Sequence record: NC_052662.1
Origin: Escherichia phage Mt1B1_P17
Reading direction: 5' to 3' (one strand)
Length of the DNA stretch: 64,000 bases
The translations under genes and the position numbers were made by a program. Under the pieces are notes generated by a model that saw only the letters and a list, made by a program, of their open reading frames with translations, had not been told where the DNA came from and searched no databases. This document shows positions 16,481 to 25,290 of this stretch, in pieces; within the stretch, counting starts at the first letter, position 1; each line of letters starts with the position of its first letter.

Positions 16481-18259
16481 GTGTCGCACATTATAACTAA
16501 ATATGGATTTGATGTTGATCTTAGCAAGGAAGGGCATACAGGTTGTCCGCGCTGCATGAAAAATGGCAAGGATCGCTCTCGTAATAACCTGATGGTTTAT
16601 GGATTAGATTCTAATGGAGAGCATAAAGGTGCTAAGTGCTTTGCGTGTGAATACACTATTCCTAGCGTAGAATGGTTACGAGAAAATGGTGAAGTTTTAG
16701 AAGAAGAGGAGGAGATTGTGGGTTCGGAATTTAATAAACAGATTCATCGTAAAATTGTTCAAGAAACATCAACCAACCCACGTGGTTATCGAGGCATTAA
16801 AGAAAAAGTTTCATCTTTCTATGGTGTTCGTTATGAATACCGTCAGGAAGGGGATCAGATGGTAGTAGAAAGTTGTTTATATCCGACTACTATCGGTAAA
16901 GAATTGGTTGGTTTTAAGCGTCGTATTCATCCTAAAGATTTCAGTAAACCTATTGGTCAAGTAGGTAAAGATGTAGATCTTTTTGGACAAATTCGTTTTG
17001 CAGACCGTTCTCATACTGTGGTAATTACAGGTGGTGAACACGATGCTCTGGCAGCTTATCAAATGCTATCTGAAAACTTGGACAACAAGTATGAACTTCC
17101 AGCAGTAGTTAGTGGCACAACTGGTGAAACCAGTATGTATAAACAAGTTCAGGCACAATATCCTTTCTTTGAAAAATTTAAGAAGATTATTGTTTGCATG
17201 GATAATGATAAAGCAGGTAATGAGGCATTTGAAAATATTGTTAAGGTGCTGCCTCGTAACAAAGTCTACCGTATGCAGATGGATCTTAAGGATGCCAATC
17301 AGTATCTGGAAGAAGGTCGTGCAAAAGATTTCGTAAAAGCTTTTTGGAGTGCTCGTCTATACACCCCAGCAGGTGTTTATGCTTCTAATGTCTTGTATGA
17401 AGCTGCATTAGAATGCTTGGAATCCAAGATGATTACCTTGCCTCCTTTTATGCGTGTAGCTGCAAACATGCTGGGTGGTGGTTTAGTAGAGGAAGAGATT
17501 ACAGTCATCCTGGCAAAGACCAGTATCGGTAAAACTTTGATGGTGAACGAGATCACCAAACATATTATTGTTGCGCACCCAGAACATACCCTAGGTATCC
17601 TGTCCTTGGAAGCAACTTATAAGAAATATTCTCGTAACCTGTTGTCCTCGTTCCTGCATATTCCTCTACACAGGAAAACACCGGAAGAGAAATTTCAAAT
17701 CTTGGAAGAGAATAAAGAAAAAATCCTAGATTTTTACGAAAGAGAAGATGGATCACCACGTTTTTATGTATGTGATGATCGTGGAGCAGATGTGGAGTCT
17801 ATCAAAGAAAAAGTTTTGGAGATGATCATCTATTTTGGAGTAACAATTCTTGTTATCGACCCTTATTCTGATTTGCTTTCTGGTATGGATGTTCAAGCCC
17901 AAGAAGAGTTAGCAACATGGTTGAAGCGCATTATGAAAGAGTATGCTATAACTATTATCGTCATCTCACACGTTAAGAAATCGGCTAATGGTGGCAATGA
18001 ACACTTAACAGAGGACGATGCAATGGGTAGTAGTTTCTTGGCTAAAGGTGCTGGTATTACCTTGGCTTTGGAACGAGATAAAGCCGCTGAAGACCCTGTA
18101 GAACGCAATACGACTCATTGCTTTATCCTAAAAAACCGTGAGTTCTCGGAAACTGGTCCGGCAGGGCAGTTTTACTATGACATTAGAACTGCAACTCTGC
18201 ATGACAAAGAGCAGTATTTCAACAATCCTGCTAATTTGCCTACGGATAGCAACTATTAA
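16481..18259 (+). CDS. DNA primase-helicase
   Basis: GTG start; N-terminal zinc finger CPRC...CFAC; Walker A ILAKTSIGKT and Walker B-like LVIDPYSD in C-terminal half. Confidence 0.7.
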   Translation: MSHIITKYGFDVDLSKEGHTGCPRCMKNGKDRSRNNLMVYGLDSNGEHKGAKCFACEYTIPSVEWLRENGEVLEEEEEIVGSEFNKQIHRKIVQETSTNPRGYRGIKEKVSSFYGVRYEYRQEGDQMVVESCLYPTTIGKELVGFKRRIHPKDFSKPIGQVGKDVDLFGQIRFADRSHTVVITGGEHDALAAYQMLSENLDNKYELPAVVSGTTGETSMYKQVQAQYPFFEKFKKIIVCMDNDKAGNEAFENIVKVLPRNKVYRMQMDLKDANQYLEEGRAKDFVKAFWSARLYTPAGVYASNVLYEAALECLESKMITLPPFMRVAANMLGGGLVEEEITVILAKTSIGKTLMVNEITKHIIVAHPEHTLGILSLEATYKKYSRNLLSSFLHIPLHRKTPEEKFQILEENKEKILDFYEREDGSPRFYVCDDRGADVESIKEKVLEMIIYFGVTILVIDPYSDLLSGMDVQAQEELATWLKRIMKEYAITIIVISHVKKSANGGNEHLTEDDAMGSSFLAKGAGITLALERDKAAEDPVERNTTHCFILKNREFSETGPAGQFYYDIRTATLHDKEQYFNNPANLPTDSNY

Positions 18260-18792: not shown

Positions 18793-19587
18793 TTGAGCAA
18801 GTTGAACACACTTGATCAATATTACACTAACCCCGCTTATGCGGGGTTCTTATGTGATAAGATCAAAGAAATTTTTGGAGAGGAAGCTAACTACGTAGAA
18901 CCATCTGCGGGAGAAGGAGCTTTCTCTTCTTGTTTTAAAAACATAACTTCTTTTGATATTGACCCTAAGTTTGAAGATTGTATTGAGGCAGATTTTTTAG
19001 CTCAATCTGTTGAGTCTGTTGGTAGTGTAACTGCTTTTGTCGGTAATCCTCCATTTGGAAAAAATGCTAGTCTTGCCATTAAATTCTTTAACCATTGTGC
19101 TGAAATGCTGGATAACGAAGGTGGTATTTGTTTTATCTTGCCTCGCACATTTCAAAAAATCTTTTTTGCACACAAGCTAAATCCCCATATGCATCTTCTT
19201 TACGAAGAAGAATGTCCAAAAGGATCTTTTATTCTTCATGGAGAACCTTGGGATGTTCCTTGTGTATTCCAGGTATGGATTAAACGCAACGAGAAGCGTT
19301 CTCCCGTTGTTTTAGGAGAGAATCGACTATTCGTATTAGGTAACAGTAAAGACTACGATATAGCCGTTAGGAGAGCGGGAGCAAGTGCAGGTAAAGTGTT
19401 ATCAGAAGAAGATTCTTTATCTGAAGCATCTACCTATTTTTTAAAAGCCTTGACTTCTGATCTTAAAACGCGTATCATTGAGGCTTACCCGTTACTTAAA
19501 GCTGAAGCTAGTAAAACTGCGGGAGTAAGAAGTTTAAGTTTAAAAGAACTTCAGTGGGTTCTGGAGAACATTAGAAAGGAGGAATAG
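18793..19587 (+). CDS. DNA N6-adenine methyltransferase-like protein
   Basis: TTG start after AAGGAGG; SAM-binding-like EPSAGEGAF and catalytic NPPF motif. Confidence 0.5.
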   Translation: MSKLNTLDQYYTNPAYAGFLCDKIKEIFGEEANYVEPSAGEGAFSSCFKNITSFDIDPKFEDCIEADFLAQSVESVGSVTAFVGNPPFGKNASLAIKFFNHCAEMLDNEGGICFILPRTFQKIFFAHKLNPHMHLLYEEECPKGSFILHGEPWDVPCVFQVWIKRNEKRSPVVLGENRLFVLGNSKDYDIAVRRAGASAGKVLSEEDSLSEASTYFLKALTSDLKTRIIEAYPLLKAEASKTAGVRSLSLKELQWVLENIRKEE

Positions 19588-22184
19588 TGAGTAAGTTTAC
19601 ATGGGATATTGAAGCAAACGGATTGTTGAATAATGACACTATTGATTATTTAGCTAGTCCTTATCGTCTCAAAGACACATTTCAAATGCACTGTATTGTC
19701 TTAGAGAACCATGAAACAGGAGAAATAGTAGCTTTCCACGATGGCCCTAAATACATCTTTGATGGGCGTCCTTATGAAGAGTCAGATGGTAAATACACAT
19801 ATGTTCTTAAAGAGTATGTGGCGCAAGATTACACACATTTTCAACTAAAAGATTTCCCAGATTTTATTAATCATGAAGGTTATTTTAAAGACAAGCCTGA
19901 ATATCTGGTTGAAATGGCTGTGGCTCACAACGGTATCAACTACGACTGGTTGGCTACAAAACTGTTTTATGGATTAGATTACAGTGTTAAATATAATACG
20001 TGGGGCAAAAATAAGGTAAAACTTATTGACTCCTTGATTTTGAGTAAAGTGTTAAACCCAGATCGAAAGATTGAGGGCAAATCAGGACATAGCTTGGCAG
20101 CACTTTCTCGAAAAGCAGGTGGTGATGTAAAAATAGATTTCCGTAAAGAGATTCCAGAAGAAGATCGATTTAAGACTTTTGCTGCGGATATGCTTTATTA
20201 CTGTATCTATGACAACAAAGCCAATACGAGCGTATATAATTACCTTATGGAAGAATGGGGTGATTATGATAAATGGGAAGGTCCATTTGAACTTGAACAA
20301 CGTGTAGCAGACATTATTACACGCCAGGAACACCGTGGGTTTGCTTTTAACATGAAACAAGCAGAAGAGAACCTTGCTTTTTTGGATGCAGAAATGGAGC
20401 GTCTTCGTTTACTCGTTGAGCCTATTTTGCCACCTAAACCAGCAACAAAAGGTTATCTTAAGGCTTTTATTCCACCTAAGTTGCAAATTAAAAAGAACTT
20501 AGAGCCAACTAACCATATGATCAATTTTGCTAAGAAACATGATGGTCATTTGGAAGAGAGGGATGGCGATTGGTGGTTAGTTATGTTGGGGAAAGAGTGG
20601 AAACTGCCAGTTGCAGCAGATGAGCCTCTATGTGATCCTAACATTCCTGCAACATTGAACGATACAACCCATATTAAAAACTGGCTTGTAGGATTAGGTT
20701 GGGTACCGTCTGAATATAAAGATAAAGACTTGACTCTTAAATCTGGCACCAAGATTAAAAAGAGCGAGGAAGAACTTCAGAAAGGTATTCGAGCTTACGT
20801 TGAGCAAACCCTATCTTCTAATTTTTGTCAGGATCGTTGTGATCATCTGGAGTGCACACCGGAAACCCTGGAAAGGAAGATTCAAGAGCGTATAGCAAAA
20901 GGTAAAGGTCGCGGTCTTAAAGTATTGACTAACCCGTGTTTTACCAAAGGTCAGGAAAAAGAAATTTGTCCTAACCTGCAAGCTTTGGGTGAGAAGTTTC
21001 CTTATGCTACACAGATTGTAGAATACTTAACGTATAAGCATCGTAGGAACTCTATTTTAGGTGGCGGTGCTGATTGGGAAGAAGATGAAGAAGATCAAGA
21101 ATACGATAAAGGTTTCTTAGCCGCAGTAAGGGCGGATGGGCGTATTCCTACCCCAGCCGCTACATGTGATGCTGCAACCTCTCGTATGAAGCATAGATCT
21201 GTAGCTAATATTCCTCGTGTCACATCTTTGTTTGGATGGGAGATGCGTAACTTGTTTGGTGTAGAGGTTCCTAAATACTTCCAGATCGGCTACGATTTCG
21301 ACTCTTTGGAAGCAAAAATTGAATCACACTACTGTTGGCGGTACGAGCCGGAGCCACACGAATATTGTAACGCTCTGTTGTTAGAGAAACCTAATGATGT
21401 TCACACAATGATGGCAAAACGTATCACTGAAACTATTGGACGTAAATTTGAACGTAGTCCTGCTAAATCTGTTAAGTATGGTATTACCTATGGTGCACAA
21501 GCCGACAAGGTTGCTAAAACAATTGGTAGCGATAAGTTTACAGGTCAATTGGTGTTTGATGCTTTCTGGGAAGCTGCATTCCCATTGGCGCGTCTTAAAG
21601 AACGTTTAAACGATTTCTGGGTTAAGACTGGTAAACAATATGTTTTGGGTATTGACGGTCGTAAGGTTCCTACTCGTTCTGCTCACGCGATTCTTAACTC
21701 TCTATTCCAAAGCGGCGGGGTTATCTGTGCTAAACGTGCAATGGTTATTTATGACGACATGATCGAAGAAGAAGGGCTAAGTGTTGACTTCTTTAAAGAT
21801 GACTGGAAGAATAAAGACTTCGTGCAACAAATGATCGCATATCACGATGAAGCCCAGCTTGAAGTTTCTCGTAACCTTGTAGAATTTAAATGGTTTTCAC
21901 CTGAATCATTAGGTTGGAAGAAAGTAGACGATCCTGAAGAACAAAAGAAAATTGATAAAGAATGCCTTGCTAAAGTTGAAGAATGGAAGCATAATAAGGA
22001 AAAAGAGACGGGACAAATTTGGGCTAACATTCATGAATCTCCCAAAGGTGGATGGTTTACAGCCTATAGTCGGGCAGGTGAACTCGCTGCTTTAGCTGTT
22101 ACTAAGGCTGGAGAATTTTACAATCTTAATGTTCAGCTTACTGCCGGATATGATGTGGGTAACTCCTGGGCATCCTGTCATTGA
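19587..22184 (+). CDS. DNA polymerase, family A, with 3'-5' exonuclease domain
   Basis: GTG start; Exo I-like DIEANG near N-terminus; KYGITYGAQ (motif B-like) and YHDEAQLEV (motif C-like). Confidence 0.75.
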   Translation: MSKFTWDIEANGLLNNDTIDYLASPYRLKDTFQMHCIVLENHETGEIVAFHDGPKYIFDGRPYEESDGKYTYVLKEYVAQDYTHFQLKDFPDFINHEGYFKDKPEYLVEMAVAHNGINYDWLATKLFYGLDYSVKYNTWGKNKVKLIDSLILSKVLNPDRKIEGKSGHSLAALSRKAGGDVKIDFRKEIPEEDRFKTFAADMLYYCIYDNKANTSVYNYLMEEWGDYDKWEGPFELEQRVADIITRQEHRGFAFNMKQAEENLAFLDAEMERLRLLVEPILPPKPATKGYLKAFIPPKLQIKKNLEPTNHMINFAKKHDGHLEERDGDWWLVMLGKEWKLPVAADEPLCDPNIPATLNDTTHIKNWLVGLGWVPSEYKDKDLTLKSGTKIKKSEEELQKGIRAYVEQTLSSNFCQDRCDHLECTPETLERKIQERIAKGKGRGLKVLTNPCFTKGQEKEICPNLQALGEKFPYATQIVEYLTYKHRRNSILGGGADWEEDEEDQEYDKGFLAAVRADGRIPTPAATCDAATSRMKHRSVANIPRVTSLFGWEMRNLFGVEVPKYFQIGYDFDSLEAKIESHYCWRYEPEPHEYCNALLLEKPNDVHTMMAKRITETIGRKFERSPAKSVKYGITYGAQADKVAKTIGSDKFTGQLVFDAFWEAAFPLARLKERLNDFWVKTGKQYVLGIDGRKVPTRSAHAILNSLFQSGGVICAKRAMVIYDDMIEEEGLSVDFFKDDWKNKDFVQQMIAYHDEAQLEVSRNLVEFKWFSPESLGWKKVDDPEEQKKIDKECLAKVEEWKHNKEKETGQIWANIHESPKGGWFTAYSRAGELAALAVTKAGEFYNLNVQLTAGYDVGNSWASCH

Positions 22185-22602: not shown

Positions 22603-22821
22603 ATGCGTAAATTAGTGAGCTTTAATGTTTCAATTCTTGTTGATGAACAAAATGAAGATGTTATTAAAGGTCTTGCAAATAAGATTGCAGGTGGAATGAC
22701 GGAAGCTGAAGTGTGGGAAGAATGTGCTCGACTTTATGAGGAAGGTGTTATTGAGGTCTTGGGGGATGAGATTAATATGGACGATGTTGTAAAAGTAACT
22801 GTGGAGCGTATCAATGACTAA
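22603..22821 (+). CDS. Hypothetical protein
   Basis: ORF, 72 aa; RBS AAGGAGAA. Confidence 0.4.
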   Translation: MRKLVSFNVSILVDEQNEDVIKGLANKIAGGMTEAEVWEECARLYEEGVIEVLGDEINMDDVVKVTVERIND

Positions 22822-23407
22822 ATCAAAACAAATCAATATTGCCAAAGAAATTCTTACCGTATTAAAGATCGCTGATCCTAATTCTGTCTTGGCTGGCGGT
22901 GCTGTTCGTGATTGGCGTATTCTTGATATTGCTGGACGTGATCTGGATTTCTATACATCCCTTCCTGCACATCGGACTGAAGAACAAATACAAGGATTAA
23001 TTGCATCTGCTTTAATGGGAACCAATATTCGTAAACTAGGAAACAAAGAGGCTTCTGACAATTATGAAGGTGTTACTGGTCTTAAACACGTTTTTGAGTT
23101 TGAACGTGATGGTCAGCTTTGCAACCTTATGATTATGGAACCAAGCGTAATGACAACCTTTCTAAATGAGTTCGATCTGTCCATCTGCCAGGCTGCATTT
23201 GATGGGAAGGACTGTTATTATTCTAAAGATTTTGAAACAACCTTGGAAACAGGGATCTGCTTCTTGCACAAAGATGTTAGAGAAGATGCCAAACATGTTA
23301 TTAAAATTGCTACACGTTTTCCATATCTTCGTTTTGTGAAAGAGGTTAAGGTTCCACGTCCACCTCAAGTAGATACCAGATTGGAAGAAGATGATATTCC
23401 TTGGTAA
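22814..23407 (+). CDS. Minimal nucleotidyltransferase, CCA-adding/poly(A) polymerase class II head-domain type
   Basis: GGAVRD followed by DLDF, then EFDLSICQAAFD, as in class II tRNA nucleotidyltransferase heads; only 197 aa. Confidence 0.55.
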   Translation: MTKSKQINIAKEILTVLKIADPNSVLAGGAVRDWRILDIAGRDLDFYTSLPAHRTEEQIQGLIASALMGTNIRKLGNKEASDNYEGVTGLKHVFEFERDGQLCNLMIMEPSVMTTFLNEFDLSICQAAFDGKDCYYSKDFETTLETGICFLHKDVREDAKHVIKIATRFPYLRFVKEVKVPRPPQVDTRLEEDDIPW

Positions 23408-23452
23408 TTAAAGCTTGACAATATTAAACATTTTATGATAGGATAGCATTCA

Positions 23453-23845
23453 ATGACTGAACGTTCTAAGATAGCTGTTGAAACTGTTTATGGAAACTAT
23501 ACCAGTTTGACACTAGTTGAGAAAAATGTTGTAGGTCTTGACAACTCTTTTTATTTTCAAATTTTGGTTATTCAAGGTGGAAACAAGAAGCTAACTGCTC
23601 GTGTTGAAACCTCTGAAATAATTGAAACCACTGTTACAAACAAAGAATTCATTTCACTGCAAGATACAATCCGAAACGTTATAGACGAAGAAGGCAAAGC
23701 TGCCACAATTAAACTCGGAGGTTTCCCAGTGCAAATAGTTCATTTTCCTAATGGTGAAATTGGAGTTGGAATAGGTAAAGGTAAATACCTGTTAGAGCAA
23801 GATGATATGGAAAGACTCCGCTCTTTCTGTGCAAAATTAATGTAA
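23453..23845 (+). CDS. Hypothetical protein
   Basis: ORF, 130 aa. Confidence 0.45.
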   Translation: MTERSKIAVETVYGNYTSLTLVEKNVVGLDNSFYFQILVIQGGNKKLTARVETSEIIETTVTNKEFISLQDTIRNVIDEEGKAATIKLGGFPVQIVHFPNGEIGVGIGKGKYLLEQDDMERLRSFCAKLM

Positions 23846-23861
23846 TGTAGAGGAGATAATA

Positions 23862-24794
23862 ATGTCCGTAATTAATACTGAAACTGATCGTAAAGGCAAA
23901 ACCGTAACTTATGCAACTGGTATCGTAGACTACGTTAAACTGGATAAATTCGCTGAACCTAAAACTTTTCATTGGGAAGGAAAAACGATTGTTTCAACTC
24001 ACCGAGCTTCTCTTGTTCTGAAAGAGAAAGGTGCTAAACCAGATGAGAAAGGTGTTTGGATTTCTCTTGGTGACATTGAACTGAAAGAAGGTTATGAAAA
24101 CCTGCAAGTCAAAGAAGGTGATAATTGGATCACTATTGAAAAAGGTGTAGAAGTAAGTATTGATATTGATCGCGTTGATAATAAAGGCGGTAAAACTTAC
24201 TACAATACTAAAAAATCTCGTATTACAGTATTGTCTACCGATGGTGTTCAGAAGTCTAACAAATCTTCTGGCAATAAAGGTTCCAACGATGCTGCTCCTA
24301 AGCAGTCCTATAAAAAACGTGATACCGTAGGCCTGGAAACTGGTCACGCAGTAAATGGTGCACTGGAACTGATTCGTAATGGTGTTAAAGGCGATGCTTT
24401 CGATATCGCTGGGGTTGTTCAATCTGCAACTGTCACACTGAAATCGGAAATTGCTGAATCTCGTGGCGTTGATATTAATGATTATGATCTTGGGGCGTCT
24501 GTTGGTCACGCTATCCTCAATGCTTGTAAAGACCATACCATTAAGACTGTATCTGTAGAAGATTTGATTGACTCTGCTCGTAAAGTTCTAGCTTTGTCTG
24601 ATAAAGTTGCTGCTGCCATTCGTGGTTCCGTAGAACAACCTAAGAAAGAAGAGAAGAAAGAAGTTAAAAAGCCTGAACCACAACCAGAACCAACTCCAAG
24701 TAATCAAGAAGAACCTCCAATGGACTTCGATGATGATATTCCATTTGCCCCTATTGGACTGCAATATGGTCGAAACTTCCTGCATTGCTTCTAA
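23862..24794 (+). CDS. ssb: Single-stranded DNA-binding protein
   Basis: C-terminal acidic tail DFDDDIPF matching bacterial SSB tip; Pro/Glu/Lys-rich linker before tail. Confidence 0.55.
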   Translation: MSVINTETDRKGKTVTYATGIVDYVKLDKFAEPKTFHWEGKTIVSTHRASLVLKEKGAKPDEKGVWISLGDIELKEGYENLQVKEGDNWITIEKGVEVSIDIDRVDNKGGKTYYNTKKSRITVLSTDGVQKSNKSSGNKGSNDAAPKQSYKKRDTVGLETGHAVNGALELIRNGVKGDAFDIAGVVQSATVTLKSEIAESRGVDINDYDLGASVGHAILNACKDHTIKTVSVEDLIDSARKVLALSDKVAAAIRGSVEQPKKEEKKEVKKPEPQPEPTPSNQEEPPMDFDDDIPFAPIGLQYGRNFLHCF

Positions 24795-25260
24795 GGTTTG
24801 TTTCAAGTGCGGGGTGTTAAAGCCCCTCACTGAATTTTACAAACATAAAGCTATGGCTGACGGTCACGTCAATAAATGCAAAGAATGTAATAAGAAAGAT
24901 GTTAAACAGAATCGTAAAGATAAATCTGAATATTACAAAGAGTATGATAAAAACAGAGATCAGACCCCAGAGCGCAAAGCTTTAAAAGAGGCTTACGCAA
25001 AAGGGAAAGGTAAAGATAAGGCTAATGAAGCTAAGAAACGTTACATCGAAAAGAATCCGAAAAAACGTTCTGCTCATATAGCTGTAGGTAACGCACTACG
25101 AGATGGAAAGTTAATAAAACAACCTTGCCAAGTGTGTGGGTCTGTTGATGTTCATGCTCATCATTGTGATTATGATAAACCGTTAGATGTTCTATGGCTG
25201 TGTCCTCTGCACCATGAAGCTTGGCATCAAGAACATGGGGAAGGGTTGAACGCTGAATAA
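24766..25260 (+). CDS. HNH endonuclease
   Basis: Zinc finger CFKCG...CKEC and HNH core HAHHCDYDKP...WLCPLHHEAWH; start uncertain (may be 24853). Confidence 0.55.
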   Translation: MVETSCIASKVCFKCGVLKPLTEFYKHKAMADGHVNKCKECNKKDVKQNRKDKSEYYKEYDKNRDQTPERKALKEAYAKGKGKDKANEAKKRYIEKNPKKRSAHIAVGNALRDGKLIKQPCQVCGSVDVHAHHCDYDKPLDVLWLCPLHHEAWHQEHGEGLNAE

Positions 25261-25265
25261 AAGAA

Positions 25266-25290
25266 AGGAGCCAAATGGCTCCTTTTCTTA
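25266..25290. terminator. Bidirectional terminator between convergent plus and minus blocks
   Basis: AGGAGCC-AAAT-GGCTCCT hairpin flanked by T-runs on both strands. Confidence 0.55.

Follow-up and report, generated by a model that had tools for sequence, protein, structure and literature searches.

The 64,000-nucleotide stretch of Escherichia phage Mt1B1_P17 DNA analysed here (sequence record NC_052662.1; hereafter the window) carries, in its replication module, a gene for a small nucleotidyltransferase (NTase) whose C-terminus resembles that of SSB, the protein that binds single-stranded DNA. We tentatively favour the reading that this protein is a stand-alone class II-type NTase, from a phage family related to the anti-defence protein Gad2, which works with the replication module, is tethered by a peptide like the SSB C-terminus (SSB-Ct), and likely serves counter-defence or host takeover. 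The source phage is a Phapecoctavirus-type coliphage (phAPEC8-like, Stephanstirmvirinae), and 64 GenBank phages are 95–99% identical across the NTase region. Because public records already annotate the gene, either as 'nucleotidyltransferase' or as 'putative tRNA nucleotidyl transferase / poly(A) polymerase', the gene itself is no discovery and, as an annotation, is ordinary. The new leads are the SSB-like tip, the link to Gad2 and the replisome context.

The open reading frame (ORF) is preceded by a GGAG Shine-Dalgarno sequence 7 nt to its 5' side, and its start overlaps the upstream ORF (22603..22821) by 8 nt. The encoded protein terminates in ...RLEEDDIPW (Table 1). The motifs quoted in the initial annotation, which was made from the sequence alone, are all present (L26-AGGAVRD-33, D43-L-D45 and E119-FDLSICQAAFD-130), and the protein is, as stated there, less than half the length of a full CCA-adding enzyme (197 versus 412 residues in E. 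coli CCA).

Structure comparison gives the NTase the fold of a class II head, of the type found in enzymes that add CCA and in poly(A) polymerases (PAPs), which places it inside the Pol beta superfamily, as the initial annotation had proposed. The closest solved folds are those of CCA-, CC- and A-adding enzymes, with small-molecule NTases scoring far lower, and the alpha/beta NTase fold characteristic of Pol-beta-like proteins is evident. The superfamily signature hG[GS]...[DE]h[DE]h...h[DE]h is found as A27-G28-G29, D43-L-D45-F and V93-F-E95-F. Seven residues (A27, G28, G29, R32, W34, D43 and D45) are invariant in an alignment of 43 family sequences. Motif A is the sole region that matches PF01743 and the CCA enzymes of the PDB at the sequence level; here LAGGAVRDWRILDIAGRDLDF follows the class II pattern GGxVRDxxLG....DxD and aligns with E. 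coli CCA, to which it is near-identical.

Motifs B and D depart from the class II consensus. In place of RRD[FL]T[IV]NA, the NTase has N118-E-F-D-L-S-I-C-Q-A, with both arginines gone. Across the family, F120 (42/43), C125 (38/43) and S123 (30/43) are retained in this region and D121 is not conserved. Motif D, EDxxR, is the amino-acid template that reads C and A in class II enzymes, and in the NTase its arginine is replaced by H161: the segment reads E157-D-A-K-H161-VIKIATRF-P170, versus E130-D-P-L-R134-VLRVARF in E. coli CCA. Position 161 is His in 26 and Tyr in 16 of the 43 sequences, the base-reading Arg occurring in one sequence only, while the family signature consists of K164 (42/43), F169 (39/43) and P170 (42/43), with D158 variable. 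We infer the equivalence to motif D from spacing (36 residues between B and D, versus 37 in E. coli CCA) and from a helix at 160–168 in the structure model, rather than from superposition. The folded part ends near residue 178 and corresponds to about the first 145–150 residues of E. coli CCA; motif E and the tRNA-binding body and tail domains of class II enzymes are absent. The core is acidic (pI 5.6; family median 5.9).

Curated sequence models give the protein no more than a sub-threshold match, in motif A. It scores 13.9 bits against PF01743 (cut-off 23; best family member 20.6) and 12.6 against TIGR02692 (cut-off 438.8), and CCA-enzyme matches in NCBIfam are weak. Searches of PDB, Pfam and NCBIfam with the single protein returned only sub-threshold or spurious matches, such as the PYL1 receptor. 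When the 43-sequence family profile was compared with PDB, class II CCA-adding enzymes and PAPs were recovered at E 0.002 or weaker, over residues 8–54 only. Motifs A, B and D come in the same order as in class II enzymes and at matching distances, and hence the NTase presumably uses the same two-metal nucleotidyl transfer. Overall, the protein is a class II-type catalytic head that is probably active, and it lacks the nucleotide-templating residues and tRNA-holding modules that define CCA-adding enzymes.

Word-indexed searches for relatives gave 12 and then 58 proteins, and an exhaustive profile search gave 1,045 representatives at 50% clustering, 333 of them at E <= 1e-10. Among the 150 representatives listed, nearly all are stand-alone proteins of 175–235 aa, indicating that the small size of the NTase is the family norm and not a truncation. 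The family is almost restricted to phages: among 185,579 cellular genomes, no more than three contigs carry its signature, all of them metagenome-assembled. Phages with a member include Phapecoctavirus, phi92-like phages, Vibrio phage ICP1 and vibriophages of the Zobellviridae. PADLOC models of defence and toxin NTases (CD-NTase, AbiEii/MenT, MNT) do not match the NTase. A distant sister, the 182-residue Gp22 of Klebsiella phage fHe-Kpn01 (hhalign 55%, E 1.2e-4), is toxic to bacteria (PMC7291057). The toxicity of Gp22, and that of Gad2 from phage SPbetaL7 (see below), fits an active enzyme that acts on host targets. We also searched phage KP34 as a link to Gp22 and found no NTase in its first 22 kb. 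The ICP1 homologue covers ∼69% of the family domain (for instance MW794191.1 118485-118936 and HQ641353.1 120313-120681) and is recorded as two hypothetical proteins in some entries, so it may be truncated or split.

Gad2 is ORF_159 of Bacillus phage SPbetaL7, a 400-aa predicted nucleotidyltransferase that cancels Gabija defence and is toxic on expression (Yirmiya et al., 10.1101/2023.05.01.538930); we used the sequence given in Supplementary Table 7 of that paper. Precomputed matches to the Pfam model PF26128 ('Gad2') exist for 17 of the 58 relatives of the NTase, with a firm match for one (P0016) and a match described only as 'faint' for another that is 60% identical to the NTase (P0009). 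Aligned by hhalign, the family profile and SPbetaL7 Gad2 match with 85% probability (E 6e-6) over 120 columns (Gad2 aa 14–136), compared to 24 columns at 35% for E. coli CCA and 44 columns at 65% for E. coli PAP. BLASTP pairs NTase aa 115–183 with Gad2 aa 100–165 (E 0.001), a stretch that spans the B-to-D region and the K...FP signature. FDFTVCMGA of Gad2 falls on the motif B-like FDLSICQA, and ...RILKF..TAFP falls on the motif D-like helix. These alignments place the family nearer to the NTase domain of Gad2 than to CCA enzymes and mark it as a remote, shorter relative of the Gad2 N-terminal domain. We considered whether the 130-aa ORF downstream of the NTase gene might supply the missing C-terminal half of a split Gad2, and rejected the idea (best BLASTP E 0.5).

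The last residues of the NTase, ...L-E-E-D-D-I-P-W-stop, form an acidic run followed by [IVL]-P-aromatic and a free carboxylate end, as in SSB-Ct, and they sit on a linker that is disordered and poorly conserved. In the AlphaFold2 (AF2) model the confidence measure pLDDT falls to 57 and then 43 over aa 181–197, and the tip is not docked onto the core. Among the ten closest relatives (59–98% identity), the last five residues are DDIPW, with one DSFPW, while the linker varies in both sequence and length. Within this close clade, mean identity reaches 0.96 in the tip, compared to 0.55 in the linker (aa 176–192, with indels) and 0.80 in the catalytic core. The tip is thus the most conserved stretch of the protein; its codons vary synonymously between lineages, and this pattern indicates that the DDIPW tip is under selection. 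The resemblance to an SSB tail noted in the initial annotation therefore holds for the NTase itself, as a conserved DDIPW of SSB-Ct type on a disordered linker. The companion statement, that the phage SSB-like protein carries DDDIPF as its own acidic tip, does not hold in this phage, where that motif is internal.

Tips of this type are rare outside SSB-like proteins. Of 235 ORFs of >=50 aa in the window, only those for the NTase and the SSB-like protein have D-[IVL]-P-[FWY] near the C-terminus. More broadly, [IVLF]-P-[FWY] termini are found in 14 of 234 non-redundant family members (∼five lineages), compared to 15 of 1,227 neighbouring ORFs of >=100 aa (Fisher p 4e-5). Fourteen of those 15 neighbours end in acidic SSB-type tails, including the W-ended DDVPW and DKDIPW, so this terminus comes close to being diagnostic of SSB-type proteins in these phages. 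On the evidence of these termini, the NTase family has acquired an SSB-type end in several lineages. Similar tips occur sporadically elsewhere in the family (NDFPW, PDDIPW, ESIPY, KPIPF, NNIPF), as do other acidic-aromatic ends (EEFEF, EEIEF, WDEEF); vibriophage NTases, like that of phi92, carry no such tip. No SSB-Ct-like tip on a nucleotidyltransferase, or on another non-SSB phage enzyme, turned up in the literature we searched. The contig with the one divergent tip, DDSFPW (P0003), stops within the SSB-like gene, and for the distant members with other tips (L003, L005, L007), no SSB was found at their loci within reach.

Some vibriophage replication modules encode proteins of 223–232 aa between the exonuclease and polymerase genes (L012 29748-30446, minus strand; L044 727-1416; L050 4134-4805) that end in GEDIPW, GDDVPW or DKDIPW and are probably gp2.5-like SSBs. 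The 232-aa protein received no SSB assignment from Pfam, PHROGs or PDB sequence searches and is a putative SSB only. If these W-tipped proteins are SSBs, an SSB tip can naturally end in Trp instead of Phe.

The SSB-like protein itself contains the sequence PPMDFDDDIPF, identical to the tips of solved enterobacterial-type SSBs. In the window, however, 15 residues (APIGLQYGRNFLHCF) follow DFDDDIPF (motif and extension together span 24723-24791), making the motif internal; it follows that the NTase bears the sole free-ended tip of the SSB type in Mt1B1_P17. In a related lineage (L008, L018), the homologue ends ...DFDDDIPF. At least 80 of 120 SSB-like homologues end exactly at the D-x-[IVL]-P-F motif, and ∼26 of the 120, among them those of the window, phi92 and vB_Ec-G1, add a conserved [AS]P[IVL]GLQY... 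module after it. Relative to L008, the stop codon of the SSB-like gene is replaced by coding sequence in the window. The extension could act as a further docking motif, either masking the SSB tip or adding to it.

One could argue instead that DDIPW is no SSB mimic and resembles DDDIPF by coincidence: it might inhibit or stabilise the NTase from within the same molecule, or be particular to its lineage and bind some other partner. In SSB, gp2.5 and gp32, the acidic tail also folds onto the protein's own binding cleft; most family members, phi92 of the same subfamily included, do without the tip; the last residue is W and not F; and the neighbouring protein has its own DDDIPF away from the terminus. 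Against this, the terminus type is almost confined to SSB-like proteins among the 1,227 neighbouring ORFs, W-ended cases included, the conservation peaks at the tip after a variable disordered linker, AF2 leaves the tip undocked at pLDDT below 50, and it co-occurs with an adjacent protein that bears a host-type tip. We regard this alternative as unlikely on balance, though it deserves serious attention.

Genomic context links the NTase to replication. The gene lies in a co-directional block of primase-helicase, PolA, three small ORFs, NTase, a 130-aa ORF, the SSB-like gene and an HNH endonuclease. The primase-helicase gene occupies 16481..18259. No terminator-like site was found between the PolA and NTase genes. 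A scan for sigma-70-like promoters gave 16 sites, versus 16.4 expected from shuffled sequence, and a decent site at 23415-23444 was not relied on. The synteny of PolA and NTase recurs in phi92 and at loci L007, L008, L016 and L018, and in the unrelated podovirus fHe-Kpn01 the gene for Gp22 overlaps the end of the polymerase gene. Across 72 diverse viral loci with a family member, a primase-helicase gene lies within 7 kb in 48 and PolA within 7 kb in 36; PolA is within 1.5 kb of the NTase gene in 27. By a rough chance estimate, given one polymerase gene per 45–150-kb genome, PolA would fall within 1.5 kb in a few percent of loci.

Table 1. Positions of the NTase gene, its motifs and other features in the window
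Feature	Position	Strand	Remarks
Mini nucleotidyltransferase (NTase) gene	22814..23407	+	197 aa plus stop, ATG start; class II-like head and first neck helix, flexible linker, DDIPW tip
Motif A, aa 26-47, LAGGAVRDW...RDLDFY, with catalytic D43 and D45	22889..22954	+	Invariant residues in 43 sequences
E95 in VFEFE strand, candidate third carboxylate	23096..23098	+	Suggested by h[DE]h pattern; invariant in close clade
Motif B-like segment FDLSICQA, aa 120-127	23171..23194	+	Order and spacing versus E. coli CCA; counterpart of RRDLTINA
Motif D-like helix, aa 155-170, VREDAKHVIKIATRFP	23276..23323	+	E157-D158-x-x-H161 for EDxxR; family signature K164...F169-P170
Variable linker, predicted disordered, aa 179-192	23348..23389	+	pLDDT drop, low identity
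C-terminal tip D193-D-I-P-W197, SSB-Ct-like short linear motif	23390..23404	+	Conservation
Family A (T7-like) DNA polymerase (PolA)	19587..22184	+	865 aa; upstream of NTase, same block; DNA polymerase I in relatives' annotation
130-aa ORF, phrog_16560 (no assigned function)	23453..23845	+	Between NTase and SSB-like gene
SSB-like protein, 310 aa	23862..24794	+	OB-fold domain, 4-helix domain, disordered acidic tail
DFDDDIPF motif of SSB-like protein, aa 288-295	24723..24746	+	Alignment with solved bacterial SSB tails
Bidirectional terminator-like hairpin	25263..25286	none	Closes polymerase-to-HNH gene block
Array of eight tRNA genes (Met, Ile, Pro, Gln, Gly, Thr, Asn, Ser)	62209-63650	-	All with genomic 3'-CCA

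Several neighbours of the NTase gene have features of their own. The 130-aa ORF is strictly syntenic in Phapecoctavirus, phi92 (gp157), L008, L016 and L018, and may be a third component of the module formed with the NTase and the SSB-like protein. A 264-aa ORF (18793..19587) abuts the PolA ORF on the same strand and shares 1 nt with it. The annotations of ZCKP1, vB_Ec-G1 and phi92 show one undivided polymerase of ∼1,100 aa, and contig L016 is split as in the window; both the 143- and the 264-aa ORFs are missing from L008 and L018. The split could reflect a frameshift, an indel or a mobile N-terminal polymerase module. The HNH, endonuclease VII-like ORF (24730-25260, plus strand; phrog_2340, E 1e-48) and the 3' end of the SSB-like gene overlap. 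ZCKP1 and nieznany have this ORF as the window does, most close relatives lack it and show an alignment gap in its place, and it looks like a mobile homing-endonuclease insertion.

Under the reading we favour, the NTase would be expressed together with the primase-helicase, the T7-like PolA and the SSB-like protein. D43 and D45, probably with E95, would bind two metal ions, and a nucleotidyl group would pass from a (d)NTP to an acceptor hydroxyl, most likely the 3'-OH of a nucleic acid. Because the NTase has no substrate-holding body or tail domains and its core is acidic, we propose delivery by the tail: the flexible acidic segment would bring the enzyme to its site of action, with the free-carboxylate ...EEDDIPW copying the SSB tip DDDIPF. 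The tip might dock in the SSB-tail pockets of host proteins that interact with SSB, or else on the polymerase or helicase of the phage, much as the tails of T7 gp2.5 and gp4 dock on T7 polymerase. The most likely role would then be modification at replication sites, or where SSB coats single-stranded DNA, serving counter-defence or host takeover in the manner of Gad2 rather than the upkeep of tRNA CCA ends. A bolder version, which we consider a long shot, is that the counterfeit SSB tail admits the NTase to the host SSB interactome or the phage replisome, where it nucleotidylates DNA 3' ends, an SSB partner or a defence protein and so blinds DNA-end-sensing immunity (for example Gabija or RecBCD-linked systems).

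A number of observations weigh against this reading. On the enzyme side, E95 is found in 28 of 43 family members (65%), and the NTase falls below threshold for every curated Pfam and NCBIfam model searched. Kinship to Gad2 is remote, confined to the NTase domain and based on one Gad2 sequence; Gad2 has an extra C-terminal region of ∼230 aa, and the 197-aa NTase does not have its full ∼400-aa architecture. Moreover, the mechanism of Gad2 was still listed as unknown in a February 2026 review (PMC12904381), and hence the label 'Gad2-like' predicts little. As for the tip, it is limited to one clade and a few sporadic lineages; the phi92 NTase, of the same subfamily, ends ...NNEEFKI, and most family members have nothing similar, which argues that the tip is a lineage-specific addition not essential to the core function of the family. 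It ends in Trp, whereas the canonical SSB tip ends in Phe. Co-variation of the NTase and SSB tips says little, as the close clade is nearly constant (DDIPW with DDDIPF). Regarding context, the enrichment across the 72 loci is gauged against the rough chance estimate given above.

Two other readings of the substrate can be weighed against the same evidence. The NTase might be a minimal poly(A) or poly(N) polymerase that tails host mRNAs or, as MenT does, blocks tRNA acceptor ends, destabilising transcripts or halting translation. Toxicity is known for distant relatives and not for the Mt1B1_P17 NTase, no RNA-binding domain or basic surface is evident, defence and toxin NTase models do not match, and both the SSB-like tip and the persistent adjacency to PolA would go unexplained; we consider such an activity improbable. 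Slightly less probable still is that the NTase AMPylates or otherwise nucleotidylates a protein (for example a host nuclease or helicase that interacts with SSB, or a protein of a defence system) or a small molecule, with the tip serving only for delivery. The nearest structures are clearly RNA 3'-end polymerases, small-molecule NTases being far more distant, a motif B-like ribose-contact segment is kept, and no candidate target was identified.

The initial annotation had proposed repair or maturation of tRNA 3' ends, and one form of this idea is that the NTase puts back C, C and/or A where host nucleases or toxins have damaged the CCA ends of phage or host tRNAs, thereby aiding late translation. 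The class of the nearest solved folds, the near-perfect class II match in motif A, the resemblance of E157-D158 to the start of motif D, the tRNA array of the phage and the GenBank label can all be cited in its favour, as can the fact that class II N-terminal catalytic cores carry polymerisation specificity. However, all eight phage tRNA genes encode the 7-bp acceptor stem, the discriminator base and CCA, so they can mature without CCA synthesis, and the host supplies a CCA enzyme of its own. One vibriophage that encodes a family member lacks tRNA genes in its complete 47-kb genome, and in the window the array lies ∼39 kb from the NTase gene, the family being linked to replication genes instead. 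Add to this the missing body and tail domains, motif E and motif B arginines, the His or Tyr in place of the motif D arginine, the motif D aspartate that the family does not conserve, the acidic core and the closer sequence affinity to Gad2, and tRNA repair by the NTase, while possible, is unsupported and the least probable of the readings considered here.

Virulent phages commonly carry small class II-like NTases (∼1,000 sequence clusters), in many cases with the gene directly adjoining that for the DNA polymerase, and among their relatives one, the distant Gad2, defeats Gabija and two show toxicity towards bacteria. The conserved docking peptide of SSB type on the present member suggests, in concrete and testable form, where such an enzyme might act, namely at SSB-partner proteins or the replisome, and an 8-residue peptide would be a cheap reagent for finding partners. 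Should the tail be confirmed, SSB-tail mimicry would extend from SSBs and T7-type helicases to an accessory enzyme, and the routine annotation 'tRNA nucleotidyltransferase', to which the present evidence gives no support, would be redirected. Were entry by the SSB tail to blind immunity, it would provide a first mechanistic handle on how Gad2-type NTases defeat defence, and a first example of SSB-Ct mimicry for enzyme delivery. We regard the combination of tail, Gad2 link and replisome context as a moderately interesting and readily testable lead.

Comparison with known systems helps to place the NTase. With the PF01743 class (E. coli PAP, 3aql; T. maritima CCA, 3h37; B. stearothermophilus CCA, 1miv) it shares the head fold, motif A and the A-B-D motif order with its spacing; it differs in being less than half the length, in the loss of the motif B and D arginines, in its acidic core and in its SSB-like tip. 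A stand-alone CCA head from S. pneumoniae (NP_344798.1, PDB 2la3, 191 aa) shows no detectable sequence match, and neither it nor Gp22 of fHe-Kpn01 has an SSB-like tip. Gad2 is likewise a phage protein with an NTase domain and shares the signatures AGGA..., DxDxY, FDx[ST][IV]C and K...FP, but it comes from the anti-defence locus of a temperate Bacillus phage rather than the replication module of a virulent coliphage, and no SSB-like tip is reported for it. Like SSB-Ct (DDDIPF), the NTase tip consists of an acidic run and then I-P-aromatic at the extreme C-terminus, on a disordered linker and under strong selection; unlike SSB, its carrier is an enzyme without an OB fold. The nearest precedent for such a tail on a non-SSB replisome protein is that of phage T7, where acidic, Phe-ended tails common to gp2.5 and gp4 dock on T7 polymerase.

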